From contig CAYZHE010000011.1 of assembly GCA_964478285.1 (NCBI GenBank), positions 4,226 to 68,225 of the forward strand: a DNA stretch of 64,000 nucleotides. Direction: 5' to 3'. The position numbers were made by a program, and so were the translations under genes. The notes under the pieces were generated by a model, which searched no databases, had not been told where the DNA came from, and saw only the letters and a program-made list of their open reading frames with translations. The stretch's first letter is position 1. Every line of letters begins with the position of its first letter. Shown one piece after another: positions 1-38,734 of this stretch. Source of the DNA: an uncultured Burkholderiaceae bacterium (GTDB taxonomy: Bacteria; Pseudomonadota; Gammaproteobacteria; Burkholderiales; Burkholderiaceae_C).

Positions 1-614
1 GCCGGCATATCCTGCGCCTCGATGATGTCGCCATTGATGCGAAAGCGCACAAATCCAAGCGCTTGCATGCGAGCGACGAGATCAGCGAATTCGCCCTTTT
101 TTTCGCGAGCAATCGGCGCCAAGATCATGACCCGAGTCTGTTCTGGGAACCCCAAGACTTGATCCACCATCTGACTGACGCTCTGGGCGCGCAAGGGTAA
201 ATCGTGGTCAGGACAATGCGGCGTACCCGCGCGAGCAAACAGCAGTCGCAGGTAATCATGGATCTCAGTCACTGTGCCCACGGTGGAGCGCGGATTGTGG
301 CTGGTCGCTTTTTGTTCGATTGCAATCGCGGGCGACAGCCCCTCAATCCAATCCACATCGGGCTTATCCATCAGATGCAAAAACTGACGGGCATAAGCCG
401 ATAAGCTTTCCACATACCGGCGTTGTCCCTCTGCATAAAGGGTGTCAAACGCCAAACTTGATTTGCCCGAGCCACTCAAGCCAGTGATCACACTCAATTT
501 GCCCTTGGGCAAATCAACGTCAATGTTTTTCAGATTGTGGGTGCGTGCACCCCGCACACTCAAACGGCCATTGAGGGCAAAAGTTGGAGGGCTCAGCGGA
601 TCTGGGGCATTCAT
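1..614 (-). CDS. uvrA: Excinuclease ABC subunit A (canonical UvrA). Only the N-terminal ~204 aa are present; the gene runs off the left window edge.
   Basis: The minus strand from ATG 614-612 reads [65 protein letters not shown]..., with the UvrA N-terminus and a Walker A motif. It is missing from the ORF track because it is open at the edge. The + ORF 442..729 is its antisense shadow. Confidence 0.85.
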
Positions 615-762
615 TTTTTTGGGCACAATCGGAAAACCACGGGCAACCGCGCATCATAAAGCGCTAGGCCCTTTCAGCCAAATCCGCTGGAGTTGTGGCG
701 CACAATACCGCTTTTACCCCTCGCCCTGATTGCCTGTGAACGTTTCTTCAGCCGAACACAAA

Positions 763-4148: not shown

Positions 4149-5822
4149 ATGATCGCCATCAAACAAGAACTCCTGGGCGCACTGAGCGCCGCGCTCAAAA
4201 GCGTTGCGCCCGACCATGACCTGACCCCGGCCTTTGAGGCGCCCAAACAAGCCAGTCACGGTGACTTGGCCTGCACCGCGGCGATGCAGCTTGCGAAGCC
4301 CTTGCGTCAAAATCCACGCCAAGTTGGTGAAGCATTGCAACAAGCGTTGCTCGCCCAAAGCGCTGTCGCGAAATGGGTAGAGGACATCAGCTTGGCTGGG
4401 CCAGGTTTTATCAACCTGCGTTTGAAGCCTGAGGCCAAACAGTCGGTGATCAAAGAAGTGCTGGCCCAGGGCCAGTCATATGGGCGGCAGCGACCCGCCG
4501 CCGACAAAGTCTTGGTTGAGTTTGTGTCTGCGAACCCAACGGGACCACTGCATGTCGGACATGGCCGCCAAGCGGCGCTAGGCGACGCCATTTGCAACCT
4601 GCTCGATACCCAAGGTCTGCAGGTCCATCGTGAGTTTTATTACAACGACGCCGGCGTACAAATCAACAACCTCGCACTATCGGTTCAAGCCCGTGCACGC
4701 GGACATCAGCCCGGCGATGCAGCATGGCCAGAGAACGCTTACAACGGTGATTACATTGCGGATATCGCCAGAGATTTCATGACCGGCGCGACGGTCCATG
4801 CGGATGATCGCAGCTTTACGGCAAGTGGCGACGCTGAGGACATTGAAGGCATTCGTCAATTCGCTGTCGCCTACTTGCGCCATGAACAAGACTTGGATTT
4901 GCAGGCTTTCTCTGTGCGCTTTGACCAGTACTATCTGGAGTCAAGCCTCTACACCGAGGGCCGGGTGGCGGGGACAGTGACGGCATTACAAGCCGCAGGA
5001 AAAACCTACGAGCAAGACGGCGCATTGTGGCTGCGGTCGACTGATTACGGTGATGACAAAGACCGGGTGATGCGCAAGACAGACGGCTCATTCACTTATT
5101 TTGTGCCCGATGTCGCATACCACGTCAGCAAATGGGAACGGGGTTTCAGCCGAGTCGTCAATATTCAAGGTTCGGATCACCATGGCACGATTGCACGAGT
5201 GCGTGCCGGTCTGCAGGCCTTGAACGTCGGCATTCCAGAGGGCTACCCCAGTTACGTGTTGCACACCATGGTGCGCGTGATGCGCGGAGGTGAAGAGGTC
5301 AAGATCTCAAAGCGCGCAGGCAGTTACGTCACCTTGCGCGATTTGATTGAGTGGACCAGTGCAGATGCAGTTCGTTTCTTCTTGCTCAGCCGCAAGCCAG
5401 ACACCGAATACATCTTTGACATCGATTTGGCATTGGCGCAAAACAACGACAACCCGGTGTTTTATGTTCAATATGCCCATGCGCGGATTTGCTCAGTCAT
5501 CCATGCCTGGGGAGGAGAGCGCAATGCCTTGTCCAGCGCCGACCTGTCTTTGCTGTCCAGCGACGCTGCATTGAACTTGATGATGGTGATCTCCAAGTAC
5601 CCTGACATGCTGACAGGTGCGGCGCAGGATTTCGCCCCGCATGATGTGACTTTTTACCTCCGAGAGTTGGCTGCGGCGTACCATAGCTATTACGATGCAG
5701 AACGGATTCTTGTGGAGGACGAAGCTCTCAAGGCTGCTCGCTTGGCGCTGGTCGCAGCAACAGCCCAAGTCCTCAAAAATGGGCTTCAAGTGCTCGGCGT
5801 TCACGCACCAGAAAAGATGTAA
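4149..5822 (+). CDS. argS: Arginine--tRNA ligase
   Basis: It has the class I motif [13 protein letters not shown] and a full-length ArgRS-like sequence with a C-terminal anticodon-binding region. ATG 4149 (MIAIKQELL) is the likely start. Confidence 0.95.
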
Positions 5823-5843: not shown

Positions 5844-6551
5844 ATGACCACACCTTTAACTCACCAACGAGGACTCAGCATCTTGGGTTTTGTCTTTGGC
5901 TTGGTCGTCGGTTTGGCTATCGCCCTTGCTGTCGCGGTGTATGTCACCAAGGTCCCGGTGCCCTTCATCGATCGCGGCGTTCTCGCTACGGCGGAACAAG
6001 AGCAAGCAGAAGCCGAAAGAAACAAAGACTGGAATCCCAACGCCACGTTCAATCAAAACAAAAGTGCTGTCGCCACCGATGGAACGCCAGTCACTGATGA
6101 GGCGCCCAATGATGGCTTGAATGCGTTGGTCAAACTGCATTCCCCGGAGCCCTCTAGCGCGGCAGAGCCTGCGTCAGAAGCGAATTCGGGTTCGGCTGTG
6201 AATGCGCTGCCCGCATCGGAGCCCTCGACCATTGAAGACAGCAAGACCGCTTCTGAAAGCACGCCGGTAGCGCCTGCAGTCGCAATGCCTGTTTCTCCGA
6301 TCGGCCAAGTGCGCGAGTTATTGTTTTTCGTTCAGGCGGGTGCATACAACCGGTTACAAGACGCGGAGTCACAGCGTGCCAAATTGGCCATGCTCGGGAT
6401 CGATGCTCGAGTGACGACTGAAAGCGTCAACGGGCAGCAGGTCAACCGGGTGCGAACGGGACCGTTCAAAACGCGCTCTGCAGCCTTGTCCACGCGTCAG
6501 CGCCTCACTGAACAAGGCATAGAGTCCTTGATCGTCGTCGTGCCGAAATAG
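5844..6551 (+). CDS. SPOR domain-containing membrane protein (division-site peptidoglycan binding)
   Basis: It has an N-terminal TM helix, a low-complexity Ser/Ala/Pro/Glu linker, and a C-terminal SPOR-like ~75 aa (FFVQAGAYNRLQDAESQRAKLAMLGIDARV...). Confidence 0.75.
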   Translation: MTTPLTHQRGLSILGFVFGLVVGLAIALAVAVYVTKVPVPFIDRGVLATAEQEQAEAERNKDWNPNATFNQNKSAVATDGTPVTDEAPNDGLNALVKLHSPEPSSAAEPASEANSGSAVNALPASEPSTIEDSKTASESTPVAPAVAMPVSPIGQVRELLFFVQAGAYNRLQDAESQRAKLAMLGIDARVTTESVNGQQVNRVRTGPFKTRSAALSTRQRLTEQGIESLIVVVPK

Positions 6552-8725: not shown

Positions 8726-10282
8726 ATGGCGATCGGAATGAAACCCAGCCTCTCGTTGCGCATGTCGCAGCAGTTGACGCTGACACCGCAGCTTCAACAA
8801 TCGATCCGGCTCTTGCAACTCTCGACTTTGGAGATGGAGCAAGAAATCGAACAGGCCCTGGAGGAGAACCCATTTCTAGAGCGGGAGGACGACCACCTTA
8901 TCGCAGAGGATTTTGGGTTAGCTGAGTCTGACCAACCGATTAGCGAAGGCGATTACATCTCAGAGGCTCAACCAGATTGGACCTTGCCATCCTCCACGAC
9001 GACTTCAGAAGTCGCCCCAGACACCTCAACAATCGGTGCTGACGATACTGCCGAAGGGTCCTCAGAAGCGGAGCCAGCATGGGATGGTGATGGAACTGTC
9101 GAAATCGCCACCAATGACACTGAATGGGGAGATGACGCTCCGCCCCGCGGCAACGCCACAGAGGATGGCGCCTCTGCGTCAGATCTCGCCAGTCGTCACC
9201 TGACATTGATTGATCACCTCATCGAGCAATCCATGGGGCTGCGCATCACCAGCGAATTGCGCGGTGCGCTGGAGTACTTGATTGGCAACCTCAATCAAGA
9301 TGGCTACCTCGAAGACACGCTCCAAGAGCTGGCAGAAGCGCTGGTGGGTGACCAAGACGCGGAAACCTTGACTCGCCTCACTGCATTGCTTGAGGAGGCT
9401 TTGGATTGGTTGCAGGATATGGAGCCCTTAGGGGTGGGAGCCCGAGACTTGAAGGAGTGCCTTAGCCTTCAAATTCTTGGTATGCGCAACAGCGAAGCGG
9501 CCCAGTCCGCCTTGCTGCTATGCGAGCAAGACATGACACTGCTGGCTCGCCGCGATGTGAAAAAGCTCGCGAGCCTCTGTAAGCTCAGTGATGCGTCCAT
9601 TAAGGACGGCTTGGCATTGATTCACTCGCTTGAGCCCAAGCCCGGGCGGCGCTTTGCCAACGCCGAGCAATACGTCATCCGCCCCGATGTCATCGTGACG
9701 CGGGAAGGGGACGATTTCAAAGTCAGCCTGAATCCAGCGGTCATGCCACGCTTGCGCATCCTCGACCAATATGCCACCGCACTGAAAGTGAGCCAAGCCA
9801 CAGCTTCACAGCAAAAACTTCAGGAGGCGCGGTGGTTTGTAAAAAACATCGCGCAACGCTTCGAAACAATCGTGCGTGTTTCAAGCGCGATCGTGATGCG
9901 ACAAAGGGGATTTTTTATGCATGGCGAGATGGCCATGCGCCCGATGGTCTTGCGCGAAATCGCCGACGAATTGGGTCTCCATGAATCAACCGTTAGCCGC
10001 GTGACCAGCTCAAAGTACATGGCCACGCCCTGGGGTACATTTGAGCTCAAATATTTCTTTGGCTCTGGGCTAGGCACTGAAGTGGGAGGCAGCGCCTCAA
10101 GCACCGCAGTACGTGCGCTGCTCAAACAGCTGATCAGCGCAGAAAATACCCAGAAGCCGCTTTCCGACAATCAACTCTCAAAAATGCTCAAAGAACAAGG
10201 CATCGATTGCGCCCGCCGCACCGTTGCCAAGTATCGAGAGTCCATGCGCATTGCGCCTGCCAACCTGCGAAAAGCTCTGTGA
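8726..10282 (+). CDS. rpoN: RNA polymerase sigma-54 factor
   Basis: The N-terminus reads LSLRMSQQLTLTPQLQQSIRLLQLSTLEMEQEIEQALEENPFLE, followed by an acidic region and a C-terminal RpoN box (ARRTVAKYRESMRI). The start is 8726 or 8738. Confidence 0.95.
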   Translation: MAIGMKPSLSLRMSQQLTLTPQLQQSIRLLQLSTLEMEQEIEQALEENPFLEREDDHLIAEDFGLAESDQPISEGDYISEAQPDWTLPSSTTTSEVAPDTSTIGADDTAEGSSEAEPAWDGDGTVEIATNDTEWGDDAPPRGNATEDGASASDLASRHLTLIDHLIEQSMGLRITSELRGALEYLIGNLNQDGYLEDTLQELAEALVGDQDAETLTRLTALLEEALDWLQDMEPLGVGARDLKECLSLQILGMRNSEAAQSALLLCEQDMTLLARRDVKKLASLCKLSDASIKDGLALIHSLEPKPGRRFANAEQYVIRPDVIVTREGDDFKVSLNPAVMPRLRILDQYATALKVSQATASQQKLQEARWFVKNIAQRFETIVRVSSAIVMRQRGFFMHGEMAMRPMVLREIADELGLHESTVSRVTSSKYMATPWGTFELKYFFGSGLGTEVGGSASSTAVRALLKQLISAENTQKPLSDNQLSKMLKEQGIDCARRTVAKYRESMRIAPANLRKAL

Positions 10283-11511
10283 CCGCATTCCATTTATTTC
10301 TCCCTTGTCCTGCTGGCGTCGAGTCTATGTTGGCAGACGAAGTTGCGCGCATCACGCACAAATCCGCAACGCAACACCGCGCCGGCATCTCGCTCTCCGG
10401 TGACTGGAGCGACGTGATGCTGCTCAATTTGCACAGCCGATTAGCGCAACGCGTGCTGTTGAGAGTTGCGCATAGCCTGTATCAAACAGAGGACGATATC
10501 TATGCAGCCGCATTGAACGTCCCGTGGGAGAACTGGTTCACGACACGCGAGTGGTTTCGCATCGATATCACTGCTAACCAATGTCCACTCAAGAGCATCA
10601 ACTTCGCTGCACTGCGAGTCAAAGACGGCTTGGTGGATCGCTTCCGTGATCGCACAGGAGAGCGCCCGAGTGTCGATACACAGCGGCCTCATGTGCGGGT
10701 TCAGGCTCACTTGAGTGCCACCGAGGTTAGTCTGTTTTTAGACACTTCTGGCGAGCCATTGTTCAAGCGCGGATGGCGCCAGGACAAGGGAGACGCGCCA
10801 CTGAAGGAGACTTTGGCTGCAGCACTGATCGTGGCAACAGGGTGGGACCCATTGGGAGATCAGGCATTGTATGACCCGTGTTGTGGCAGCGGCACTATTG
10901 CCATCGAAGCCGCTCAAATGTCTTGTCAAATCGCACCAGGATTGAATCGCCGATTCGCTTTCGAAAAACTGATGGGTTTTGACCGAACCCGATGGCTCGA
11001 CTGTCGCAAGGCGGCCATGGCCTCGATTCGCGTACCCGAAACGCCAAGAGTGTTCGGCAGCGATGTGTCGCATCGCATGGTCGATTTCGCCCAACGCAAC
11101 GCGGAGCGCGCCGGCGTGACCAAAGCACTTGAATTGCGCGGTGGTGACGCCTTGCAGCGGATGCCTCCCAGCAACGAAGCTGGCGTGATGCTCCTGAATC
11201 CACCATATGGCGAGCGCATTGATGTCGCAGGCGTTGCCAAGGGGGGTGCCAACCGGCGCTTCCAAACGCGTGACTCGGCGCCGGTCGATATGGATGATGA
11301 GAGCGCAAGCGCTTTTTACAGCGCATTGGCTGCTCATTGGAAAAGCCATTTTGACGGCTGGAGCGCATGGGTTTTGAGCCCCGACGCCAAGCTGCCAGGC
11401 TTGATGCGCCTCAAAGAAACGCGGCGTATGCCAGTGTTCAATGGTCCTATTGAGTGCCGTTTGTTTCGCTTTGATATCCAGGCCCGCAAGCAACAGCCAC
11501 CTGCGCGATGA
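10279..11511 (+). CDS. THUMP-domain class I SAM-dependent RNA methyltransferase (RlmL N-half-like)
   Basis: It has the SAM-binding motif YDPCCGSGTIAIEAA, the catalytic NPPYGERI and a THUMP-like N-terminal region. A likely GTG start at 10279 overlaps the rpoN stop (GTGA). Confidence 0.8.
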   Translation: MTAFHLFLPCPAGVESMLADEVARITHKSATQHRAGISLSGDWSDVMLLNLHSRLAQRVLLRVAHSLYQTEDDIYAAALNVPWENWFTTREWFRIDITANQCPLKSINFAALRVKDGLVDRFRDRTGERPSVDTQRPHVRVQAHLSATEVSLFLDTSGEPLFKRGWRQDKGDAPLKETLAAALIVATGWDPLGDQALYDPCCGSGTIAIEAAQMSCQIAPGLNRRFAFEKLMGFDRTRWLDCRKAAMASIRVPETPRVFGSDVSHRMVDFAQRNAERAGVTKALELRGGDALQRMPPSNEAGVMLLNPPYGERIDVAGVAKGGANRRFQTRDSAPVDMDDESASAFYSALAAHWKSHFDGWSAWVLSPDAKLPGLMRLKETRRMPVFNGPIECRLFRFDIQARKQQPPAR

Positions 11512-11930
11512 TGAGCCATCTGGTGCTGGACACCAACATCATTCTGGATGTCTTGGTCTTTGAAGAGGAACGATGCCATCCCTTGCGCACAGCACTCCAA
11601 CAAGGGCGAATCAGGCTCTTCGCAACCCAGGATATGCGCGCAGAATTGGTGCGCGTATTGGACTACCCGAACATCAAAAAACGCAGGGATCAAAGGCAGC
11701 TATCGATTCCCCATGTATTGAGTCAATTCGACAACTGGGTGGATTGGTGCGAGCCGGCACCCAAGGTCGGCTTTACCTGCAAAGACCCTGACGATCAATG
11801 TTTTTTAAATTTAGCAGCTCAACAACAGTGCGCATTGATCAGCAAAGACGAAGCCGTACTGACGATGCGCAAACGCATGGCCACTGTAGGCGTCATGGTG
11901 CATGACGTTTGGACTGATCCAGCCCCATGA
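11508..11930 (+). CDS. PIN-domain protein (putative ribonuclease; solo PIN toxin-like family)
   Basis: LVLDTNIILDVL places an acidic Asp in the first strand, and further conserved acidic residues (CKDPDDQCFLNLA, ISKDEAVL) fit a PIN fold in 140 aa. The ATG overlaps the methyltransferase stop (ATGA). Confidence 0.7.
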   Translation: MMSHLVLDTNIILDVLVFEEERCHPLRTALQQGRIRLFATQDMRAELVRVLDYPNIKKRRDQRQLSIPHVLSQFDNWVDWCEPAPKVGFTCKDPDDQCFLNLAAQQQCALISKDEAVLTMRKRMATVGVMVHDVWTDPAP

Positions 11931-12666
11931 TGAAACGCAGCGAAGGCATGGAGTGGGCTCGCATTTGTTCATCAGAGTACGCCTCGTTGGACCCAACAGG
12001 GCAAGCTCTCCTGGCCAAACAATCGAGTCGGCAACTCGAATTCGCGCTGAGTCGGTGCGACTGACATTGACTGCCATCCCATTGAGGCGAACAGGCGCCG
12101 GCTGGACAAGCAGCCTCACATGCCCGAGTGAGGCAGCTATCGCAAGGTGATGGGCGATCGACGGGGTCGCATCGCGGCGCCAAAACATCAGCGCAAATCA
12201 CGGCGCGGTATGCAAACCACGTCCCCCACATCTCGTCGATGTTCAATTGAAAAGGGCTGTGGTGTTTCCAGCCCAATATCCGTCCAATCGCCTGTAAAGG
12301 GACCACTGCGCCCATCTCGCCAGTCGCGTCGGGCACCCAAACTTTTGCGGCCCACCCCCTGAGTTGGATGCGCTCACTCAGAAATTGATGCACCCACCTG
12401 TCAATCGGGTTTGCTTCATCAGCCAGCTCATCGATGGAGGCCACGCGATAAGCATCAAGAATCGTTCGCCAAAGGGCGCGGCCATGGTGCCCGACGATCC
12501 ACCATTGCTTGGCCTGCATCGCATGAGCATGGTCTAGCTCGAGGCGGCCTTGCAAATACTCTCCCAACTGGGCTGGTTCCATGACGCCCAGCACGCTCAA
12601 GCCGTGCGCGTCTAAATCATTGACCCAATCACTCCAATCGCTCGCTGAAATCAATGATTCAGTCAT
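11893..12666 (-). CDS. Cys-rich putative Fe-S (ferredoxin-like) protein of unknown function
   Basis: The C-terminal part carries the clusters CDSCLTRACEAACP and CRLDCLARRACPVG, which resemble 4Fe-4S ferredoxin motifs. The ATG shares a base with the dtd stop (TGATG). I do not recognise a family assignment. Confidence 0.45.
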   Translation of the reverse strand: MTESLISASDWSDWVNDLDAHGLSVLGVMEPAQLGEYLQGRLELDHAHAMQAKQWWIVGHHGRALWRTILDAYRVASIDELADEANPIDRWVHQFLSERIQLRGWAAKVWVPDATGEMGAVVPLQAIGRILGWKHHSPFQLNIDEMWGTWFAYRAVICADVLAPRCDPVDRPSPCDSCLTRACEAACPAGACSPQWDGSQCQSHRLSANSSCRLDCLARRACPVGSNEAYSDEQMRAHSMPSLRFIMGLDQSKRHAP

Positions 12667-13103
12667 CACAATTGCATGGGAATGGTGACAGGTCCGTCGT
12701 TGATCAGGTGTACTTGCATGTCTGCTGCAAACACGCCAGTTGCTACCCGAGGGTGCGCATCCCGCGCCATGTGCACCAACTGATCAAACCAGTCGCGGGC
12801 CATTTCAGGCGCCGCTGCGCCAGAAAATCCAGGGCGAGTACCGCGACTCACATCCGCAGCCAGCGTGAATTGACTGACCAACAGCAAACCGCCCTGCACA
12901 TCTTGGACGCTGCGATTCATTTTGCCCTCTTGGTCTGAAAAAATGCGCAGCCGCAGCAGCTTGTCTAAAAATTTTTGGGCAGTTTGCTCGGTGTCTTGAG
13001 GCTGGGCGCAGACGAGTACCAAAAGGCCATGTCCAATTTCGCCAACCACCGCAGCGTCCACCTCAACCCTAGCTTGTTTCACTCGTTGGATGACTGCAAG
13101 CAT
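12666..13103 (-). CDS. dtd: D-aminoacyl-tRNA deacylase
   Basis: This 145-aa protein reads MLAVIQRVKQARVEV...GLLVLVC...SQFTLAAD...GTRPGF...NDGPVTI, a typical Dtd sequence. Confidence 0.9.
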   Translation of the reverse strand: MLAVIQRVKQARVEVDAAVVGEIGHGLLVLVCAQPQDTEQTAQKFLDKLLRLRIFSDQEGKMNRSVQDVQGGLLLVSQFTLAADVSRGTRPGFSGAAAPEMARDWFDQLVHMARDAHPRVATGVFAADMQVHLINDGPVTIPMQL

Positions 13104-13109
13104 TTTCTG

Positions 13110-14027
13110 CTATTTGATGTCGCGAGGATCGTCAAAATGGGCCTCTACATTAGTAGGCAACAACTGGATCGTCGCGCGCAAGCCTGGCACCGAACTCATC
13201 AGGGCCTGCTCCACGCTGATGCGCACAGCAGCAGCCCGTTGCAAGCTCCAAGAGCCCGGCAAATGCATGTGTACGTCGACAAAACATCGGTTGCCGGCAC
13301 GGCGCGTGTACAAGTGATCAAAACGAAGGATGGGGTGACCGTTTCGGGTCAACACGAATTCGTCCAAAACCCCACGAATGCTCGCCAAGGTGTCTGCGTC
13401 CACCGCCTCATCCATGAGTCCTTGCGAGGACTCCCAAACGAGCTTGACACCTTCGCGCGCGATATTTAGCGCCACAACGGCGGCGGCAACCAAGTCCAGC
13501 CACCACCACCCGGTAAACTGCGCGAGCATCAGCCCAGCCACGACGCCTGCCGATGTCCACACATCGGTGATCAAATGGCGCGCATCTCCCTCTAAGGCTT
13601 TGGATCGAAATCGCCGAGCAGAGTGGATCATTCCCCAAGCCAAAAAACCATTGAATGCGGAGCTCAACACCGACAGCCCAATGCCTATATCCAGTGCGCC
13701 CAAGGGCACCGGATCAAACCAACGATCAATGGTGGACCACATGATTCCGGTCGCAGCGCCGAGAATCAAAATGCCTTCAAACCCAGATGAAAAATACTCC
13801 GCCTTGTGATGCCCATATGGGTGATCTTCGTCAGCTGGCTGTTGCGCCACCACGACCATGCGCCAAGCAAACATCGCGCCTGCAAGGTTGACAAAACTTT
13901 CCATCGCATCCGAAAGCAAGGCCACCGAATCGGTGATCCACCAAGCCAGTGTCTTGAGCCCGATCGTGATCAAGGCCACAGCAGCCGAGACTTTGAGCCA
14001 CTGCGAGGGTTGCCAGTTGGCGATCAA
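13110..14027 (-). CDS. Cation diffusion facilitator (CDF) family metal efflux transporter
   Basis: It has 6 TM helices with LLSDAMESFVN and HPYGHHKAEYF motifs and a C-terminal cytoplasmic domain. Confidence 0.85.
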   Translation of the reverse strand: MIANWQPSQWLKVSAAVALITIGLKTLAWWITDSVALLSDAMESFVNLAGAMFAWRMVVVAQQPADEDHPYGHHKAEYFSSGFEGILILGAATGIMWSTIDRWFDPVPLGALDIGIGLSVLSSAFNGFLAWGMIHSARRFRSKALEGDARHLITDVWTSAGVVAGLMLAQFTGWWWLDLVAAAVVALNIAREGVKLVWESSQGLMDEAVDADTLASIRGVLDEFVLTRNGHPILRFDHLYTRRAGNRCFVDVHMHLPGSWSLQRAAAVRISVEQALMSSVPGLRATIQLLPTNVEAHFDDPRDIK

Positions 14028-14039
14028 ATCTAACTCCAG

Positions 14040-15269
14040 TTAGCTGAGCGTGACGCGCGCAAACTTGCGCTTGCCCACCTGCAAGACAAAGCTTCCCGCC
14101 TCTAGCTTAATCCCTCGATCAGTTACCACTGCGCCATCGACTCTCACCCCACCACCGTCGATCAAACGTCCTGCTTCACTGCTCGAAGGTACCAGCCCGG
14201 CTGCCTTAAGTACAGCAGCGATGCCCATGGGTGCGCCCGACACAGTCACCTCGGGAATGTCATCTGGGATGCCCCCTTTGCTGCGGTTGATGAAGTCTTG
14301 CTCAGCAGCAACAGCCGCCGCCGCATTGTGGAAGCGCGCCGTGAGCTCCTTGGCCAACGCAACTTTGGCCTCTTTGGGGTTGAGACCAGCGTTGACCTCC
14401 GAACGCAGTTTCTCAATCTCGGCCATCGAGCGGAACGACAACAAGGTGTACCAACGCCACATCAACTCGTCGCTAATCGACAGCGTTTTGGCAAACATCG
14501 TGTTGGCGTCTTCGGTGATACCGATGTAGTTGTTTTTACTCTTGGACATTTTGTCCACGCCATCCAAGCCTTCTAACAAGGGCATCGTCAGAATGCATTG
14601 TGGCTCTTGTCCGTACTCTTGCTGGAGGTGTCGACCCATGAGCAAATTAAACTTTTGGTCAGTCCCGCCCAACTCCAGATCAGAACGCAAGGCCACACTG
14701 TCATAGCCCTGCATCAGCGGGTACAAAAATTCATGCACGCTGATCGACTGTCCGCTGTGGAATCGCTTGTGGAAATCATCTCTCTCCATCATGCGGGCCA
14801 CGGTGTATTTGGCTGATAACTCGATCATGCCCCGGGCACCCAGGGGATCACTCCATTCGCTGTTGTATCGAATTTCTGTTTTTTCAGGATCTAAAACCAG
14901 ACTGGCCTGGGCAAAATAGGTTTTGGCGTTGGCTTCTATCTGCTCTCGTGTCAGGGGTGGACGGGTGGAATTGCGGCCAGAGGGATCACCAATCATCGAT
15001 GTAAAGTCGCCGATCAAAAAGATCACTTGATGCCCCAAGTCTTGAAGCTGGCGCATTTTGTTTAACACCACGGTATGCCCAAAGTGCAAGTCAGGCGCCG
15101 TAGGATCTAAACCCAACTTGATGCGCAACGGCTGCCCGGTCTGCTGGGACCTCGCGAGCTTTTTCAGCCACTCTGCCTGGGGCAACAACTCATCACATCC
15201 GCGCAGGCTAACGGCCAACGCGTGAGCGAGTTCATCGTTCATTTTGATATCTTGGTGTTCTGCGGTCAC
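14040..15269 (-). CDS. tyrS: Tyrosine--tRNA ligase
   Basis: It has the HIGH-type motif PDLHFGH, KMSKS, and a C-terminal S4-like domain. The exact start is uncertain: 15269 or an internal Met. Confidence 0.92.
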
Positions 15270-15444
15270 TGGTCAATTACCCATTCAGAGCTGCGGATTG
15301 GTGGCTTGTATACTTTGGCATCACAAAGCATTGGTTGAAAATGGCGGTTTGCCCCTTCAACTGTCGATTGATACCAGATTGTAGTGGCGAGTCTTTGGCA
15401 AAAATTTGCGCACTTGAGCGATCGTTTTCAAACATTGTCCAGCG

Positions 15445-31036: not shown

Positions 31037-32017
31037 ATGAACGCCGCTTTGCCCCTGTTGTTCGCCTTGATCGTGCTTTGGCTGTTGGTCAAGCGCCTCA
31101 CTATCGGCTACACCGTCGACGTCAGCGCAACCATCGAGGCGCCGCAAGCGCACGTGGATGTAATGATCGGTGACTTTGAACATTGGCTGCAATGGAACCC
31201 CTGGCTGATGCAAGAACCTGACGCCCAAATCACACTTGTATCACCTGACGCAATCGGCGGCGAATACCGTTGGCAGGGTCGCTTGATCGGCGCTGGAGTG
31301 ATCCGCCACTTGAGCCGAGCACCAGCCCACCAATTCAACATGGCGTTGAGCTTCTTGCGCCCGTTCAAGGCGCACTCACGCCTCGTCTTTGTGACCACTG
31401 CGCTGGACGACCAGCGCACCGAGGTCCGCTGGAAAATGCAAGGTCGCCTGCCTTTGATGATGGCACCCATGCGCACTTGGATGAGCAAAATGCTGGCAGT
31501 CGATTTCGAATTGGGATTGGCACGCCTCGGGGGTTACGCCAACCCACAATCCCCTCACCCTGTGATCACCTTCGGCGAGCGTGAAGACCGCGCGTCGTTT
31601 CACGCATTGGCGTCTAGCCACCACACCAGTTTGACCCATTTGCCAGAGGTGGTTGGCCCCGCCTTTGAAGCTTTGGTTGCCATCGCCAATGGCGCCATCA
31701 GCGACGCTCCCATTGCGGTGTATCACCGCATCGATGGCAAATCCAACTCGGTAGAAATGGAGGCAACCCTACCCGTAGAAGAGACCACGCCAGGGGCAGT
31801 GTTGATTCGCGGTGGCTACTATTTCAAGACGGTCCTGCAAGGTGACTATCAATTTTTGAAAGTCGCCTGGCACGCTGCCTACGGTCAGGCTCGGATGCGC
31901 AAATACAAATGGGATTCCAGCAGCCCAGCCCTTGAACGTTATGTGATCGGCCGAGCTCAATCGAATAACAGCAACGACTGGGTCACTGAGCTCTATATAC
32001 CCATCAAGGAGTCATAA
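31037..32017 (+). CDS. Membrane-anchored SRPBCC (START/Bet v1-like) plus GyrI-like small-molecule-binding domain fusion protein
   Basis: It has an N-terminal TM helix (LPLLFALIVLWLLV), a polyketide-cyclase/SRPBCC-like ~150 aa, and a C-terminal GyrI-like/AraC-effector-binding-like domain ending ALERYVIG...NDWVTELYIPIK. GGAG lies 6 nt before ATG 31037. Confidence 0.7.
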   Translation: MNAALPLLFALIVLWLLVKRLTIGYTVDVSATIEAPQAHVDVMIGDFEHWLQWNPWLMQEPDAQITLVSPDAIGGEYRWQGRLIGAGVIRHLSRAPAHQFNMALSFLRPFKAHSRLVFVTTALDDQRTEVRWKMQGRLPLMMAPMRTWMSKMLAVDFELGLARLGGYANPQSPHPVITFGEREDRASFHALASSHHTSLTHLPEVVGPAFEALVAIANGAISDAPIAVYHRIDGKSNSVEMEATLPVEETTPGAVLIRGGYYFKTVLQGDYQFLKVAWHAAYGQARMRKYKWDSSSPALERYVIGRAQSNNSNDWVTELYIPIKES

Positions 32018-32020
32018 GCC

Positions 32021-32377
32021 ATGCCTGTGTCTTTGTGGACGGCACTCAAAGTCATTCCTTGGAAGGACGTGGTGGATGCAGCCCCCGCTGTGGTTGCAGC
32101 CGCGAAGGCCCTGCGCAAAGGTCGTCCTGAAACACCCGCTGCGCCGAGCGCGGGTACCTCACTAGAACCGCAGGTATCACAAGTGCTGCGCGAGCAATCA
32201 GATCGGATCGCTGCGCTCGAGGCGACACTGGGCGAATTGGCGGAGCACCATGTTCGGCTGATCACCGCCATCGATGTATTGCGCACGCGCACCCGATGGC
32301 TGATGGCGGGTGTTGGCATCGCCCTTGGCATGGCGCTGCTGCTCGCGTACCGACTCGGTCAAACACTCAATATGTGA
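32021..32377 (+). CDS. Small hypothetical tail-anchored coiled-coil protein
   Basis: This 118-aa protein has AAGGAG 9 nt upstream and starts 4 nt after the preceding stop. It has a central heptad-like stretch (QSDRIAALEATLGELAEHHVRLITAIDVLR) and a C-terminal TM helix (WLMAGVGIALGMALLLAY). I recognise no family. Confidence 0.5.
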   Translation: MPVSLWTALKVIPWKDVVDAAPAVVAAAKALRKGRPETPAAPSAGTSLEPQVSQVLREQSDRIAALEATLGELAEHHVRLITAIDVLRTRTRWLMAGVGIALGMALLLAYRLGQTLNM

Positions 32378-32433: not shown

Positions 32434-35400
32434 TCACAGCAGCGGCGCGATTGCTCTACCCGTATGCGTTGCGGCCTTGACCAAGCCCTCAGGCGTGGTG
32501 GATGCGACCAACTGCCCCCCCTGTTTACCGCCCTCTGGCCCCAAGTCCAACACCCAATCCGCTTCCGCAATGACATCGAGGTCATGCTCAATCACGACCA
32601 CACTGTGCCCCCCGTCCACCAACCGGTGCAAGACCCGAATAAGTTTCTCAACATCACTCATGTGCAAGCCCACGGTGGGTTCATCCAGCACATAAAGCGT
32701 GTGAGGCGCCTTTTGACCGCGGCGACCGACCTCATCGCGCACTTTGGTCAGCTCCGTGACCAATTTGATGCGCTGAGCCTCTCCCCCCGACAGGGTCGGC
32801 GATGGTTGGCCCAGCGTCAAATAACCCAGTCCTACATCTTTCAACAGCTGCAAGGGATGGGCGATCGCAGGCATCGCCGCAAAAAACTCAACTGCCTCAT
32901 CCACCTCCATTTGCAGCACATCACCAATGTGTTTGCCCCGCCAGGTCACCGCAAGTGTTTCAGGATTGAACCGCATACCGTGACAGGTTTCACACAAAAC
33001 TTTGACGTCGGGTAAAAAACTCATTTCCACAGTCCGCATACCCTGACCTTCACAGGTGGGGCAGCGGCCCTCACCCGTGTTGAACGAGAAGCGCGCTGCA
33101 CCATAGCCTCGCGCTTGAGCCTCCAGCGTGCCGGCAAACAACTTGCGCACCACATCCCAGAATCCGATGTAAGTTGCGGGGCATGATCGCGGCGTCTTTC
33201 CTATCGGCGTCTGATCAACCTCTAGAACGCGGTCAACTGCAGCGACGCCCTCAATGCGTGCGCAGCCCTGCCAGTTCATAGATGCGCTTTTATCGCGCCG
33301 CTGACCCACCACTGTGGCCATGTTTTGCAGCAGCACGTCGCGCGCTAAAGTTGACTTACCAGAGCCAGAAACCCCCGTCACGGCCACCAGTCGGTACAGC
33401 GGTATATCGGCGTCCACTTGTTGCAAATTGTGCAAACTCGCACCTTTGACTGCCAACCACTCCCCCTCAGTCCGATTGACAGAACGGCGCGGTTGCAAGG
33501 GATGACGCATGACGTCGCGCAAATAACGGCCAGTCAAAGAGCCATCGTGATTCAAAAGCTCTTGAACCGTGCCCTGCGCCACGACAGTACCACCTCGCTT
33601 GCCAGCCCCCGGACCGATATCAATCACATGGTCCGCTCGTCGAATGGTGTCTTGGTCATGTTCCACGACAACCAATGTATTGCCCTTGCTGCCCAGGCGC
33701 TGCAGTGCATCGAGCAAAATCTGGTTGTCTCTGGCATGCAGGCCTATGGTGGGCTCATCGAGCACGTAACACACGCCCTGCAAGTTGCTGCCCAACTGCG
33801 CAGCCAATCGAATGCGTTGCGCCTCCCCACCACTCAATGTGGGGGCCCCTCGATCCAGCGTCAAATAGCCCAGCCCCACGTCCTGTAAGAACTGGAGTCT
33901 CGACTCGATCTCCGGCAATAAATCTCGAGCGATTTGGCCAGCGCGACCATCCAGTTTCAGTGCTTGTACCCACGCATACACCTCAGCCACAGACAATCGC
34001 GCAATTTCATGAATTCCCACTCCTTCAAACCGAACCGCACGGGCTTGTGGATTGAGTCGGGTACCAAGACATGCTGGACATTCGCCCTCACCCACGCCAT
34101 CGAGCTCTGGCTCTGCAAAACTTTGCTCGCGGCCCCGCTGATCCGAACTGAACAGGGTGTCGTCCAACTCAGCGCGCTGGGCTTTGGACAAGGGTTTGCC
34201 CGTGCCAACGCAATCCGGACACCAGCCGTGCTTGCTGTTGTAGGAGAACAATCTTGGGTCAAGTTCTGGGTAGCTTGTCGCGCAAACAGGGCACGCCCGT
34301 AAGCCAGAGATCACCTCAATCTGTCCAAGGCCGACGGTGCTTTTGCCTGAGGTCATGGCATGAGCCAGTCCATCCAGCGGCGCCAGCAAATGCACCACAC
34401 CCTTACCTAAAGTCAGTGCGGTGAGCAGCAGATGCTTGACTTGCGCCTCCTCGTTCGGCTGTACCACAGCATCACCGATCGGCAGTTCTATGGTGTGTTC
34501 TTTGAAACGATCTATGCGCGGAAATCCATTGGTTGGCAGGAACTCGCCGTCGACACGCAGGTGGCTGTAACCCCGAGGCCGCGCCCACTCTGCAAGCTCG
34601 GTATAGACGCCCTTGCGGTTGACCACCAAAGGTGCAAGCACGCCAATGTGCTGACCACGGTAGTGGCGCATCACATGTGCCACCATTTGCTCAGGCGTTT
34701 GAGGAGCCACCAGAGCGCCGTCATGAACACAATGCTGCGCACCGAGTTTCACGAAAAGCAAGCGCAAGAAATGCCAAACCTCTGTCGTCGTACCAACGGT
34801 ACTCTTGTGGCCGCCGCGAGACAGGCGTTGCTCAATTGCAACCGTGGGCGGTATGCCGTAAACCGCATCGACCTCGGGTCGGCCCGCCGGTTGGACGATC
34901 GAGCGGGCGTAGGCGTTCAAGCTTTCTAAGTAGCGGCGTTGCCCTTCGTTGAACAAGATATCAAACGCCAGGGTTGACTTGCCTGACCCCGAGACGCCGG
35001 AAATCACGTTGAACTTGCCACGTGGAATATCGACAGACAATCCTTTGAGGTTGTGCTCTTGTGCATTGATGATTTGGATGGCAGGCGAATTGGTTTCGCG
35101 ACGCCGTGCCGGGCGCAACCGGGGAACTGGTGACTCACCCACACCCTTGCCACCCAGACCCATGGCCTCTTCATACTCCCTCAGTGCCTTGGCTGTATGC
35201 GACTTGGGGTGATCGCGCAGGCTCTCGGGCGTGCCCTGGGCCACAATCAAACCACCCGCGTCGCCACCCTCGGGCCCCAGATCAATGAGCCAATCTGCGC
35301 AGCGAATCACGTCTAAATTGTGCTCGATCACCACAATCGAATGTCCCGCCTCTAACAGCTTGCGCAAACTGCGCATCAACTTGGCGATATCGTCAAAGTG

Positions 35401-38154
35401 CAATCCTGTCGTCGGCTCGTCAAACAAAAACAGTTGCCCCTTGCGCGCAGTCGGTTGTCGGCTTTTGCTCGCGGTTTGAGCGGCTTGGGCCAGAAAGCCT
35501 GCCAACTTGAGACGCTGAGCCTCGCCTCCAGACAACGTTGGTACTGGCTGCCCCAAACGCACGTAATCCAAACCGACATCAACGATGGGTTGCAGGGCTC
35601 GAATCACTTCCGAATCTTTGGCAAACACTTGCACGGCTTGTGCAACGGTGAGTTCTAGAACATCCGCCACATTGAGTGGTAAATCTGTCTCTGGGTGGCG
35701 GCGATCACTCGCTCGCACCTCCAATACTTCGGGTCGATAGCGCTGACCATTGCAGTCAGGGCAACGGAGATACACATCCGATAAAAACTGCATTTCAACG
35801 TGTTCAAAACCTGATCCGCCACAAAGTGGGCAGCGACCATCACCACTGTTGAAACTGAATTTGCTCGAGGTGTATCCACGCTGGCGAGCCAAAGGTTGGT
35901 CGGCGAACAGTGCGCGAATGCCATCCCAGGCGCCGACATAGCTGATCGGATTAGAACGTGCCGTTTTGCCAATTGGTGACTGGTCGACAAACACCACGCC
36001 ACTCAAATGATCACCGCCGAGCAAGCGCTGGTGCGCGCCGGGTGATTCAGTGGCGACACCAAACTGACGCATCAGAGCTGGCGCCAGCACATCCTGAATC
36101 AATGTGGACTTGCCCGAACCCGAGACCCCAGTGATACAAACCAAACGCTGTAACGGAATGTCGACTGAGATGTTCTTCAAGTTGTGTTCCGTGACGCCCT
36201 CAAGAATCAATCGGGGCGTCGATTCGGAAACCATTCGTTTGAGGCCCATGCCAACCTGTTTGCGATTGCCCAAATAGGCACCCGTCAACGTATCAGCATG
36301 GCGCAATGCTTCGGGCGTACCGTCAAACACAATGTCACCCCCTCGCTCGCCAGGACCAGGTCCCATGTCCAAGACGCGGTCAGCCGCCAACATCACGGCT
36401 GGGTCGTGCTCAACGACCACCAAGGTATTGCCGGAGTCTCTGAGTTTGAGCATGGCTTCGTTGATTCGATCCATGTCACGGGGGTGTAAACCGATGCTCG
36501 GCTCATCCAACACAAACAAGGTGTTCACCAAAGAGGTACCGAGGGCAGTGGTCAGGTTGATGCGCTGCACTTCACCACCTGACAACGTGCGGCTTTGGCG
36601 ATCGAGAGTGAGGTAACCCAAGCCCACGTTGCACAGGTACCGCAGGCGCGATGTGATCTCCTCGAACAACAAGCTTTGCGCACGAGACTGGGCATCGTGG
36701 CGGTCTAAAGTCGTGGTTTGTAACTTTTCAAAAAATTTGAGCAGCGTGCTCATTGGCATCAGCATCAAGTCGTGCAAGCTCAAGCCAGGCAGAGATTCCA
36801 GTTGGGCTCTTGTCCATCTAACTCCCGCTGGCAAGAACCGAGCAGATGGCGCCATCACTGCATTCGCCTGTGCGTCATCGCCCAAGCGCCAAAGCAAGCT
36901 TTCGGTTTTCAGCCGTGCCCCTGCGCAAACCGGACAGGTTGTGTAACTGCGGTACTTAGAGAGCAATACTCGGATGTGCATCTTGTAGGCTTTGCTCTCG
37001 AGGTATTCGAAGAAACGCTTGATGCCATACCACTGCTGGTTCCATTTGCCTTTCCAATGGGGCGAACCGTTGATAACCCAATCTTTTTGCTCCTGGGTGA
37101 GCAGGCTCCAAGGGGTATCGCGTGGGACACCGGCCGTCTCAGCATGGCGCAAGAGGTCATCCTGACATTCCTTCCAAGCCGGTGTTTGGATGGTCTTGAT
37201 GGCGCCAGTGCGGAGTGTCAAGCGATGATCTGGGATCACCAACCCGTAATCCACACCAATGACACGACCAAACCCTCGGCACGTCTCACAGGCACCGACT
37301 GCTGAGTTGAACGAGAACATGGAGGGCGTTGGCGCTGCATAACGCAAGTCACTGTCTGGGCAGTGGAGACCTGTCGAAAACTTCCATACCTCGGGCTCGG
37401 CGTCCAGCGCATCTTGCGGGGTCGCCACGACTTGCATTTGCCCGCTGCCTCGCTTGAGCGCCAACTCGATCGCCTCCATGGCACGCGGGCGATCGACACC
37501 AGGCCATTTGAATCGATCGATGACGACGTCCAACACCTTGCGCACGCCCTCAGCACTGCTGACTTCGCGCTCGGCGTGCACCCGCGTAAAACCGCTCGCT
37601 GCGAGCCACTGCTGGACCTCCTCAGCGGTGGTCTTCGCTGGCAACTCGACAGCAAAGGTCACGTGAATGCGCCAACTTTGAACGCCCGCGCGCTGTGTGA
37701 TCTGCTCAAAAATAGTGTCAGGCGTGTCGTGTTGAACGGGCTGGGCGGTATCGCGGTCGAATAGCTGGGCACTGCGGGCGAACAAAAGCTTCAAGTGGTC
37801 GTTCAGCTCAGTCATCGTGCCAACGGTAGACCGTGAGCTGCGCACTGGATTGGTTTGATCGATCGCAATGGCTGGCGGCACCCCCTCGACCGCATCGACG
37901 GCTGGCTTATCCATGCGATCCAGAAACTGGCGCGCGTAGGCAGAAAACGTTTCTACATAGCGCCGTTGCCCTTCGGCGAACAACGTATCGAACACCAGAC
38001 TTGATTTGCCTGATCCGCTCGGTCCTGTAAATACGGTCAGTTCACCTGTGCGGATATCAATATCTAAGTTTTTTAGATTGTGCTGGCGAGCACCCCGTAT
38101 GCGAATCACGCCGGCTTCTGCATGCATTGGACTGGTTTTTTTAGGGAAGGTCAT
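32434..38154 (-). CDS. Tandem (double) UvrA-like protein of ~1907 aa: two fused UvrA modules with four ABC nucleotide-binding sites
   Basis: The ORF is uninterrupted. Residue numbers count from the track Met at 38313. It has four Walker A motifs (GPSGSGKS 97, GVSGSGKS 729, 1106, 1648), four LSGGE signatures, UvrA-type CxxC zinc knuckles, and IRIRGARQHNLKNLDIDI / IQIINAQEHNLKGLSVDI module starts. ATG 38154 (MTFPKK) is preferred because the upstream extension overlaps the usp gene and its terminator. Confidence 0.9.
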   Translation of the reverse strand: MTFPKKTSPMHAEAGVIRIRGARQHNLKNLDIDIRTGELTVFTGPSGSGKSSLVFDTLFAEGQRRYVETFSAYARQFLDRMDKPAVDAVEGVPPAIAIDQTNPVRSSRSTVGTMTELNDHLKLLFARSAQLFDRDTAQPVQHDTPDTIFEQITQRAGVQSWRIHVTFAVELPAKTTAEEVQQWLAASGFTRVHAEREVSSAEGVRKVLDVVIDRFKWPGVDRPRAMEAIELALKRGSGQMQVVATPQDALDAEPEVWKFSTGLHCPDSDLRYAAPTPSMFSFNSAVGACETCRGFGRVIGVDYGLVIPDHRLTLRTGAIKTIQTPAWKECQDDLLRHAETAGVPRDTPWSLLTQEQKDWVINGSPHWKGKWNQQWYGIKRFFEYLESKAYKMHIRVLLSKYRSYTTCPVCAGARLKTESLLWRLGDDAQANAVMAPSARFLPAGVRWTRAQLESLPGLSLHDLMLMPMSTLLKFFEKLQTTTLDRHDAQSRAQSLLFEEITSRLRYLCNVGLGYLTLDRQSRTLSGGEVQRINLTTALGTSLVNTLFVLDEPSIGLHPRDMDRINEAMLKLRDSGNTLVVVEHDPAVMLAADRVLDMGPGPGERGGDIVFDGTPEALRHADTLTGAYLGNRKQVGMGLKRMVSESTPRLILEGVTEHNLKNISVDIPLQRLVCITGVSGSGKSTLIQDVLAPALMRQFGVATESPGAHQRLLGGDHLSGVVFVDQSPIGKTARSNPISYVGAWDGIRALFADQPLARQRGYTSSKFSFNSGDGRCPLCGGSGFEHVEMQFLSDVYLRCPDCNGQRYRPEVLEVRASDRRHPETDLPLNVADVLELTVAQAVQVFAKDSEVIRALQPIVDVGLDYVRLGQPVPTLSGGEAQRLKLAGFLAQAAQTASKSRQPTARKGQLFLFDEPTTGLHFDDIAKLMRSLRKLLEAGHSIVVIEHNLDVIRCADWLIDLGPEGGDAGGLIVAQGTPESLRDHPKSHTAKALREYEEAMGLGGKGVGESPVPRLRPARRRETNSPAIQIINAQEHNLKGLSVDIPRGKFNVISGVSGSGKSTLAFDILFNEGQRRYLESLNAYARSIVQPAGRPEVDAVYGIPPTVAIEQRLSRGGHKSTVGTTTEVWHFLRLLFVKLGAQHCVHDGALVAPQTPEQMVAHVMRHYRGQHIGVLAPLVVNRKGVYTELAEWARPRGYSHLRVDGEFLPTNGFPRIDRFKEHTIELPIGDAVVQPNEEAQVKHLLLTALTLGKGVVHLLAPLDGLAHAMTSGKSTVGLGQIEVISGLRACPVCATSYPELDPRLFSYNSKHGWCPDCVGTGKPLSKAQRAELDDTLFSSDQRGREQSFAEPELDGVGEGECPACLGTRLNPQARAVRFEGVGIHEIARLSVAEVYAWVQALKLDGRAGQIARDLLPEIESRLQFLQDVGLGYLTLDRGAPTLSGGEAQRIRLAAQLGSNLQGVCYVLDEPTIGLHARDNQILLDALQRLGSKGNTLVVVEHDQDTIRRADHVIDIGPGAGKRGGTVVAQGTVQELLNHDGSLTGRYLRDVMRHPLQPRRSVNRTEGEWLAVKGASLHNLQQVDADIPLYRLVAVTGVSGSGKSTLARDVLLQNMATVVGQRRDKSASMNWQGCARIEGVAAVDRVLEVDQTPIGKTPRSCPATYIGFWDVVRKLFAGTLEAQARGYGAARFSFNTGEGRCPTCEGQGMRTVEMSFLPDVKVLCETCHGMRFNPETLAVTWRGKHIGDVLQMEVDEAVEFFAAMPAIAHPLQLLKDVGLGYLTLGQPSPTLSGGEAQRIKLVTELTKVRDEVGRRGQKAPHTLYVLDEPTVGLHMSDVEKLIRVLHRLVDGGHSVVVIEHDLDVIAEADWVLDLGPEGGKQGGQLVASTTPEGLVKAATHTGRAIAPLL

Positions 38155-38224: not shown

Positions 38225-38248
38225 CAAAAAAGCGCACCCGAGGTGCGC
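38225..38248 (-). terminator. Rho-independent terminator after usp
   Basis: The minus strand reads GCGCACC-TCG-GGTGCGC followed by TTTTTTG. It separates usp from the double-uvrA gene. Confidence 0.6.
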
Positions 38249-38296
38249 CTTTGAACGACCGCAAAGCAGTCAACGATACAGCGTACGCTGCTGAAA

Positions 38297-38734
38297 TCAG
38301 GGCTTGATGACAAGCACCGGCAAGTCGCTGTGGGTCAACACTTTTTGAGTGACACTGCCCAAAATCAGGGCCTTCATCCCCTGACGCCCGTGCGATCCCA
38401 TCACAATCAAATCGCAATGCTCGGCTTCAGCCGTGTCCAATATGCCCTCATAGGTCGCGCTGCGTTCGATGGTATCGCCCTGGTATCGCACGCCCAATGC
38501 CTCCGCTTCGATGCGAATGTCAGTGAGGGCCTTTTGGGCAGCCAGCTGAACCTCTTCCATGTAAGCCTGGAGTCCTAGCGCGGAAGCCTCCCCCAATCCG
38601 ATATAAGGAAACGGATCAATCACATACACACCCACAACAGAGGCGCCCTGCAACTTGGCCATCTCGAGTGCATCCTTGGCAGCCTTGTTGGCCAACTCAG
38701 AGCCGTCCGTGGGAATCAAGATTCTGTTGAACAT
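38297..38734 (-). CDS. Universal stress protein (UspA family)
   Basis: This 145-aa protein has ILIPTDGSE...IVMGSHGRQG...LGSVTQKVLTHSDLPVLVI. Confidence 0.85.
   Translation of the reverse strand: MFNRILIPTDGSELANKAAKDALEMAKLQGASVVGVYVIDPFPYIGLGEASALGLQAYMEEVQLAAQKALTDIRIEAEALGVRYQGDTIERSATYEGILDTAEAEHCDLIVMGSHGRQGMKALILGSVTQKVLTHSDLPVLVIKP

Follow-up and report, generated by a model that had tools for sequence, protein, structure and literature searches.

Bacterial nucleotide excision repair (NER) starts from a symmetric UvrA dimer (UvrA2) and must end asymmetric, with one UvrB on the damaged strand; the mechanism and the number of UvrB molecules involved are debated (PMC11985968). Here we analyze a gene of an uncultured Burkholderiaceae bacterium that encodes two UvrA modules in one chain of 1906 amino acids (aa), the tandem UvrA. 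The gene lies in a stretch of 64,000 nucleotides (nt) of contig CAYZHE010000011.1 (assembly GCA_964478285.1, contig positions 4,226 to 68,225). We call this whole stretch the window, and all nucleotide coordinates below count from its first letter unless a locus is named. Judging from its sequence, we think it probable that the tandem UvrA, encoded beside a canonical uvrA, senses DNA damage as a UvrA pseudo-dimer within a single chain, with its asymmetry hard-wired.

The closest described systems are the class I UvrAs (Escherichia coli b4058; Bacillus stearothermophilus 2R6F and 3UWX; Mycobacterium tuberculosis 3ZQJ, 9GA3, and 9GA4). Their layout is common to each tandem module: two ATP-binding cassette (ABC) nucleotide-binding domains (termed NBD-I and NBD-II), with accessory domains inside NBD-I and a C-terminal zinc finger in NBD-II. 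Class I proteins are also the best sequence and fold matches of the tandem modules, and the ATPase and DNA-binding residues are conserved. However, class I UvrA is a homodimer of ~940-aa chains, whereas the tandem UvrA is one 1906-aa chain with two nonidentical modules. The class I dimer has two insertion domains, two copies of zinc module 1, and two R216/E222 surfaces, whereas the tandem UvrA has one of each per molecule. An insert of ~34 aa in the N-terminal (N) module further sets the tandem protein apart from class I.

Several of these parts have been studied in E. coli UvrA. A passage in PMC3025350, citing Pakotiprapha et al. 2009, states that R216A/E222A disrupts the UvrB interaction surface, and the same passage describes this surface as probably that for Mfd as well. 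Deletion of residues 131 to 248 abolishes excision repair, and deletion of the insertion domain (residues 290 to 400) lowers damage discrimination (PMC3025350). In cryo-electron microscopy of the M. tuberculosis UvrA dimer, the two insertion domains differed on the lesion, in "recognition" and "support" roles; both A2B1 and A2B2 complexes were seen, and the authors called the UvrB stoichiometry unresolved (PMC11985968).

The class II UvrAs (the Deinococcus radiodurans protein named UvrA2, 2VF7; Ecm16, 7SH1; and DrrC) resemble the tandem UvrA in being extra paralogues beside a canonical gene. They act independently of UvrB, UvrC, and UvrD, and class IIa proteins lack zinc module 1, as the tandem N module does (PMC9328131). 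However, class II proteins are single and lack the UvrB-binding domain, whereas the tandem UvrA has a domain of that size in both modules. The tandem protein thus lies outside both the class I definition (homodimer, ~940 aa) and the class II definition (no UvrB-binding domain). A second excinuclease gene, uvrA2, has also been reported on the second replicon of Cupriavidus metallidurans CH34 (PMC2864759). This gene, Rmet_4549, may be of the tandem type.

The tandem uvrA is one intact gene beside a canonical uvrA

On the minus strand, one frame runs open from 38313 to 32434; counted from a TTG, it has 1959 codons. A first-pass annotation of the window had described this single open reading frame (ORF), with ATG 38154 as its likely start, and the ORF list and the translation agree with it. 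Translated from ATG 38154, the tandem UvrA has 1906 aa, and the coding sequence, stop included, occupies 32434 to 38154 on the minus strand. This assignment draws on the ORF list, the translation, the score against the family model NF001503, and full-length homologues. An ATG 9 codons downstream is a possible alternative start, and neither candidate has an obvious Shine-Dalgarno sequence in the upstream sequence that we read. Both of the module starts that had been pointed out, IRIRGARQHNLKNLDIDI and IQIINAQEHNLKGLSVDI, are found in the translation. An ORF of 1900 codons far exceeds chance expectation in DNA of 57% G+C.

We scanned genomes, one per species, for related stretches and confirmed at least 596. 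The best 80 are 80 distinct loci. They match the window protein over essentially its full length, with 67 to 76% identity in the best tblastn segment, and all of those assigned below phylum belong to the Burkholderiales. Seventy-four of the 80 loci, complete chromosomes included, have a longest ORF of no fewer than 1900 codons. The remaining six are shorter, and in at least some of them the match reaches the end of the contig. An assembly or annotation artefact, in which two adjacent uvrA-like genes or a pseudogene pass for one gene, is rejected because the frame is open here and runs uninterrupted for at least 1900 codons in those 74 other loci. All catalytic motifs are conserved as well, and we give the artefact next to no chance. 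The fusion of both modules in one polypeptide, as first proposed, therefore stands.

The loci assigned below phylum come from the Comamonadaceae, the Rubrivivax/Roseateles group, Burkholderia, Cupriavidus, Pandoraea, Caballeronia, and Mycetohabitans, with Variovorax and Acidovorax genomes also among them. Wherever the replicon is named, the Burkholderia and Cupriavidus orthologues sit on chromosome 2. The protein database holds full-length relatives of 1896 to 1988 aa, with 73 to 92% identity, from Hylemonella, Curvibacter, Rhodoferax, Hydrogenophaga, Ramlibacter, Acidovorax, and others. All of these are named simply "excinuclease ABC subunit UvrA."

At the edge of the window, positions 1 to 614 (minus strand) encode the N-terminal 204 codons of a canonical class I uvrA, which the edge cuts. 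Translated, this 204-aa N terminus is 71% identical to E. coli UvrA and 43 to 45% identical to either tandem module. Since the N terminus of a canonical uvrA sits at 614 to 1, the tandem gene is an addition to the normal uvrA and not a replacement, as the first-pass annotation held.

Both modules carry complete sets of UvrA ATPase motifs

By phmmer alignment to B. stearothermophilus UvrA (2r6f), supplemented by Pfam for the N module, the protein divides into an N module of aa 1 to 995 (35170 to 38154) and a C-terminal (C) module of aa 1025 to 1906 (32437 to 35082); these and all further features of the gene are on the minus strand. The N module consists of an NBD-I with a UvrB-binding-domain-like insert and an insertion domain, followed by an NBD-II with a C-terminal zinc finger. 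The C module contains zinc module 1 and a UvrB-binding-domain fold within its NBD-I, which is likewise followed by an NBD-II with a C-terminal zinc finger. Between them lies a Gly/Pro/Arg-rich linker at 35083 to 35169, where it had been placed at first; these positions correspond to aa 996 to 1024 when counted from ATG 38154. No stretch of the protein is less conserved than this linker. Orthologue linkers are 20 to 79 aa long, Ala/Gly/Arg-rich, and unalignable, and in this comparison the hypervariable linker behaves as a tether.

All four of the Walker A loops and all four of the LSGGE signatures that had been reported are present; the residue numbers first given for them equal those counted from ATG 38154, which we use here, plus 53 (±1). 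Walker A reads GPSGSGKS in the N-module NBD-I (aa 44 to 51; 38002 to 38025) and GVSGSGKS in the N-module NBD-II (aa 676 to 683; 36106 to 36129), the C-module NBD-I (aa 1053 to 1060; 34975 to 34998), and the C-module NBD-II (aa 1594 to 1601; 33352 to 33375). The signatures start at aa 524, 874, 1440, and 1788, and the Walker B motif with its H-loop (DEPxxGLH) is found at aa 546, 908, 1462, and 1820. There are nine CxxC motifs in the protein. Residue conservation was taken from an alignment of 72 orthologues, in which each of the four sets of Walker A, signature, and Walker B/H-loop is at least 90% conserved. The equivalents of E. coli K37, K646, G502, R712, and R724 are preserved in both modules and reach the same level of conservation.

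Family models gave the same picture. The NCBIfam UvrA equivalog NF001503 scored 1936 bits (cutoff, 1147) and TIGR00630 scored 1914 bits (cutoff, 730), each in three stretches spanning both modules. NF001885 (PRK00635), a model of double-length UvrA with 1809 positions, scored 1149 bits, below its cutoff of 3054. By every sequence test, each module is a UvrA.

A comparison of each half with class I and class II representatives had been proposed in the first-pass annotation, and it places both with class I. In phmmer, the N module scored 724 bits against the class I protein 2r6f, 543 bits against the class II protein 2vf7, and 445 bits against the class II protein 7sh1; the corresponding scores of the C module were 805, 587, and 461 bits. 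By these scores, both halves are class I-like rather than class II-like. For this family, a mixed fusion (one class I half and one class II half) was rejected, since both modules score best against class I and both contain the UvrB-binding-domain region.

The modules have lost complementary domains

The protein had initially been described as two complete modules. Two UvrA modules with four intact ATPase sites are indeed present, but the insertion domain is missing from the C module, as is zinc module 1 from the N module. Only the N module has the insertion domain and the equivalents of R216 and E222, and only the C module has zinc module 1; every one of the 72 aligned orthologues shows this split. 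Both modules contain zinc modules 2 and 3. The UvrB-binding-domain region (E. coli residues 118 to 248) also aligned in both, with 124 matched positions in the N module and 131 in the C module.

In the N module, the UvrB-binding-domain-like region covers aa ~130 to 262 (37369 to 37767). The equivalents of R216 and E222 lie there in the motif VVIDRF...R..E.IELAL and are at least 90% conserved. The ligands of zinc module 1 are gone: the sequence reads HCP(D/E)S, without the upstream Cys/His. In the predicted structure this region is locally confident, with predicted local distance difference test scores (pLDDT) of 70 to 85, and the order of its helices and strands is the same as in the C module. 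The insertion domain, identified by PF17755 and the 2r6f alignment, occupies aa 293 to 406 (36937 to 37278) between the two CxxC pairs of zinc module 2, and the spacing between these pairs is 115 to 116 aa in all 72 orthologues. Pfam scored the N module at 30 bits for UvrA_inter (PF17760) and 40 bits for UvrA_DNA-bind (PF17755).

In the C module, the UvrB-binding-domain fold (34285 to 34737) keeps the zinc module 1 ligands (HCVH..., ACPVC), scores 90 bits for UvrA_inter, and is predicted with pLDDT of 82 to 89. Whichever plausible alignment register is used, the positions of R216 and E222 lack Arg/Glu and are not conserved. In place of the insertion domain, a loop of ~43 aa lies between the CxxC pairs of zinc module 2 (34081 to 34209; from the alignment, pLDDT of ~44). 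This loop is 43 to 46 aa long in all 72 orthologues, and residues 306 to 417 of the 2r6f chain are left unmatched by the C module. The AlphaFold2 model of the C module has a pLDDT of 74, and its best Foldseek matches are class I UvrAs (template modeling score, 0.67 to 0.73), ahead of class II.

On average, the orthologues are 74.3% identical to the window protein in the N module and 74.6% identical in the C module. Both modules are equally constrained.

The ~34-aa insert of the N module (aa 426 to 459; 36778 to 36879) follows the second CxxC of zinc module 2. This segment is absent from B. stearothermophilus UvrA and conserved in the orthologues, for example, at W447 and P456-G457.

Tandem UvrAs are old and widespread

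With the N module as the query, a search of 1.84 billion cluster representatives (50% identity) gave 57,110 matches; we classified the best 150, assigning architectures by phmmer alignment to E. coli UvrA. Proteins of 1550 to 2340 aa dominate these 150. Approximately 120 of them are tandem UvrAs (1500 to 2340 aa) of several architectures and from several phyla; such proteins rank high in an N-module search partly because both of their modules score. The architecture of the window protein, a complete module joined to a module without insertion domain, is the commonest (49 of the ~120 clusters). Two complete modules are found in 27 clusters and two class II-like modules, in proteins of ~1600 aa, in 22; the remainder have rarer combinations. 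Some tandem UvrAs of 2334 to 2343 aa carry an extra C-terminal region of ~350 aa. No stand-alone precursor resembling the N module was accepted among the matches of ~1000 aa, which looked like fragments; one of them (P0176) is annotated as partial and lies on a 4.5-kb contig.

Named sources of tandem UvrAs include Chloroflexota, Planctomycetota, and "Candidatus Kinetoplastibacterium crithidii." The last is a reduced endosymbiont whose genome (CP064915; 816,901 bp) encodes a 1809-aa tandem UvrA of the same architecture as ours, at 10001 to 15430 of locus L082. If Kinetoplastibacterium has no canonical uvrA, the tandem form must suffice for repair.

The relationships among the modules were examined in a distance-based (neighbor-joining) tree of 222 modules and E. 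coli UvrA, the sole single-module sequence. No module is nearest to its own partner. The N and C modules of the window protein fall in two matching pure clades of 46 clusters each. Because these clades match, we infer for this family one old tandem ancestor whose halves have co-diverged since. A recent internal duplication is rejected: the N and C modules are 34 to 44% identical to each other, each is closer to E. coli UvrA (39 to 50%), and none pairs with its partner in the tree. The phylogeny of the halves that had been called for at the outset thus identifies an old tandem pair and speaks against a recent duplication; it supports no claim on the ultimate origin of the pair.

The co-divergence bears on how the modules pair. 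The long flexible linker would permit pairing between chains, giving domain-swapped dimers or higher oligomers with eight ATPase sites. However, tethering strongly favors intramolecular pairing and the N and C lineages have co-diverged as a fixed pair, and we regard pairing between chains as very improbable.

The breadth of the family bears on another explanation, in which the tandem UvrA is a redundant or back-up fused UvrA: each of its two UvrB-binding domains would bind UvrB, for an A2B2-like stoichiometry, and the loss of domains would be neutral trimming without mechanistic meaning. The Pfam score of the C-module domain and its well-folded model fit this explanation, and an NCBI equivalog model exists for a UvrA of ~1800 aa (NF001885). 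Retention of a tandem UvrA in the 0.8-Mb Kinetoplastibacterium genome also suggests a capacity for an essential repair job. However, the R216/E222 positions are variable in the C modules, and the architecture is fixed in all 72 orthologues and is the commonest tandem type. Because it is both fixed and commonest, selection rather than drift would lie behind the domain split. We consider a fused back-up with neutral losses quite unlikely.

Since hundreds of related stretches occur in Burkholderiales genomes and more than 100 tandem clusters at 50% identity are spread across phyla, the window gene is an orthologue of a known, apparently uncharacterized family. The tandem architecture is widespread and already annotated, and the window gene is no rarity. 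The present analysis adds the complementary loss of domains that the orthologues share, evidence of how old and how broadly distributed tandem UvrAs are, and the lineage-specific SOS boxes described below; together they frame the hypothesis of a hard-wired asymmetric UvrA. The plain UvrA name given to tandem proteins hides a distinct, old paralogue family. Reviews have listed proteins of this kind as "class III UvrA," and SEED labels them "Excinuclease ABC subunit A, dimeric form." In full-text literature searches the term "class III UvrA" had no match, and "UvrA duplication" had one, about two separate genes in Methanobrevibacter.

The domain split suggests a single-chain, asymmetric damage sensor

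In the arrangement that we think probable, the two modules would fold against each other like the protomers of UvrA2. Such packing is the most likely one because the modules are tethered, have co-diverged, and retain four intact ATPase sites and two intact DNA-binding/zinc-finger surfaces. The result would be a single-chain damage sensor in which all four ABC ATPase sites work and each module offers a C-terminal zinc-finger/DNA-binding surface. Asymmetry would be built in, with the insertion domain and the UvrB/Mfd-contact residues in the N module only. Because these elements are confined to the N module, we would expect the protein to use a single insertion domain as its clamp on DNA and to recruit no more than one UvrB, by way of the N module. 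This proposed asymmetry fits canonical UvrA2, which is itself asymmetric in its action on a lesion (PMC11985968). Hard-wired asymmetry would further account for the second, very large uvrA that many Burkholderiales maintain under strong purifying selection, with an SOS box ahead of it in some lineages.

More tentatively, the tandem UvrA may be an obligately asymmetric natural UvrA that loads exactly one UvrB per lesion, in a geometry fixed with respect to the DNA. This idea builds on the single insertion domain and the single UvrB/Mfd dock sharing one module; we hold it as a possibility and would not bet on it. If true, it would offer a ready-made system in which to address A2B1 versus A2B2 stoichiometry and the choice of the damaged strand. 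The four ATPase sites could be mutated separately, which is impossible in a homodimer, and so could the zinc fingers and the single insertion domain.

Several observations weigh against these proposals. R216 and E222 are only two of the UvrB interface residues. The C-module UvrB-binding-domain fold is conserved, with its 90 bits in Pfam, and this domain may bind UvrB or another partner via different residues, in which case the 1:1 idea fails. The predicted structure of the N module is poor overall (pLDDT of 52). The genes around the tandem uvrA are housekeeping genes, and no repair genes adjoin it. No CTGT-N8-ACAG sequence was found upstream of either uvrA in the window, the start region of the canonical gene (window 1 to 730) included, and most Comamonadaceae loci are without an SOS box upstream of the tandem uvrA. 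Finally, full-text literature searches, which were not exhaustive, turned up no study of the function or structure of a tandem UvrA, in agreement with the first-pass annotation, which knew of no such characterization.

Some of the same observations favor a UvrB-independent, class II-like role, comparable to Ecm16, DrrC, and the D. radiodurans UvrA2 protein: ATP-driven recognition and clearing of DNA-bound intercalators or adducts, or toxin protection, rather than loading for NER. The tandem UvrA is an extra paralogue beside a canonical uvrA, as are the class II proteins, which work without UvrB, UvrC, and UvrD (PMC9328131). It has no adjoining repair partners and no SOS box in this lineage, and its N module lacks zinc module 1, as in class IIa. 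However, both modules contain a region of UvrB-binding-domain size, which class II lacks by definition, and both score nearer to class I than to class II. The R216/E222 contacts of the N module are at least 90% conserved, and the locus lies outside any biosynthetic or resistance cluster. We therefore consider a UvrB-independent role unlikely.

SOS boxes precede the orthologue in some lineages

Perfect LexA-type boxes, CTGTAT-N4-(A/G)TACAG, were found 5' of the tandem uvrA orthologue in 10 loci out of 74, against a chance expectation of ~0.4 (per-position odds of 1 in 4^8). They sit 66 to 218 nt upstream of the conserved IRIRGARQH motif near the orthologue start. The loci that bear them belong to Pandoraea, three Cupriavidus, Burkholderia multivorans, two Caballeronia, Mycetohabitans, and two Comamonas (L050, at 5875 to 5890 of that locus; also L040, L049, L053, L060, L061, L062, L069, L074, and L081). 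In B. multivorans a TATAGT hexamer overlaps the box, which lies ~140 nt ahead of the start. Because boxes precede the orthologue in some lineages, the family appears linked to the SOS regulon over part of its distribution, and the pattern suggests that SOS control of the tandem paralogue is lineage specific. SOS regulation in the window itself was rejected: the sole CTGT-N8-ACAG of the 64 kb, at 1249 to 1264, lies inside an ORF and is at chance level.

The tandem uvrA sits in a stable housekeeping neighborhood

The neighbors of the tandem uvrA are a universal stress protein gene (usp), DsbA-like, ybaK, and HMG-CoA-lyase-like genes, a major facilitator superfamily (MFS) gene, and ahcY. The DsbA-like, YbaK-like, and HMG-CoA-lyase-like neighbors are common to 15 to 24 Comamonadaceae loci, and the G+C content of the tandem uvrA matches that of its surroundings. 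The gene is a stable, vertically inherited member of the core genome and neither an island nor an assembly error. In PADLOC, the UvrA nucleotide-binding domains of the tandem protein match the models mad3 (492 bits) and mad8 (216 bits), which indicates that the MADS components Mad3 and Mad8 are UvrA-like ATPases. A role of the tandem UvrA as an anti-phage MADS component was rejected, because the similarity is the generic one of nucleotide-binding domains, there is no mad cluster, and the housekeeping context is syntenic across Comamonadaceae.

Downstream, a gap of 416 nt separates the tandem uvrA stop codon from a convergent SRPBCC/GyrI-like gene. Small ORFs in 31993 to 32377 have no family match and are conserved in one locus only. 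One of them, a 118-aa ORF at 32021 to 32377 on the plus strand, has a hydrophobic C terminus and no Pfam match; its counterpart, 45% identical and in the same position, was found in only one related locus (L019).

Upstream, usp occupies 38297 to 38734 on the minus strand, according to the neighborhood annotation. No convincing sigma-70 promoter was found upstream of the tandem uvrA; a TTACAG...TAGAAT pair there has a 20-nt spacer. A terminator-like, GC-rich hairpin, GGCGCACC-TCG-GGTGCGC followed by TTTTTT, was read directly from the sequence 3' of usp, at 38226 to 38249 on the minus strand. A consensus terminator scan does not list this hairpin with its six Ts, though it apparently meets the stated criteria of the scan. 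Because the hairpin separates usp from it, the tandem uvrA looks monocistronic, which suggests that it is transcribed on its own.

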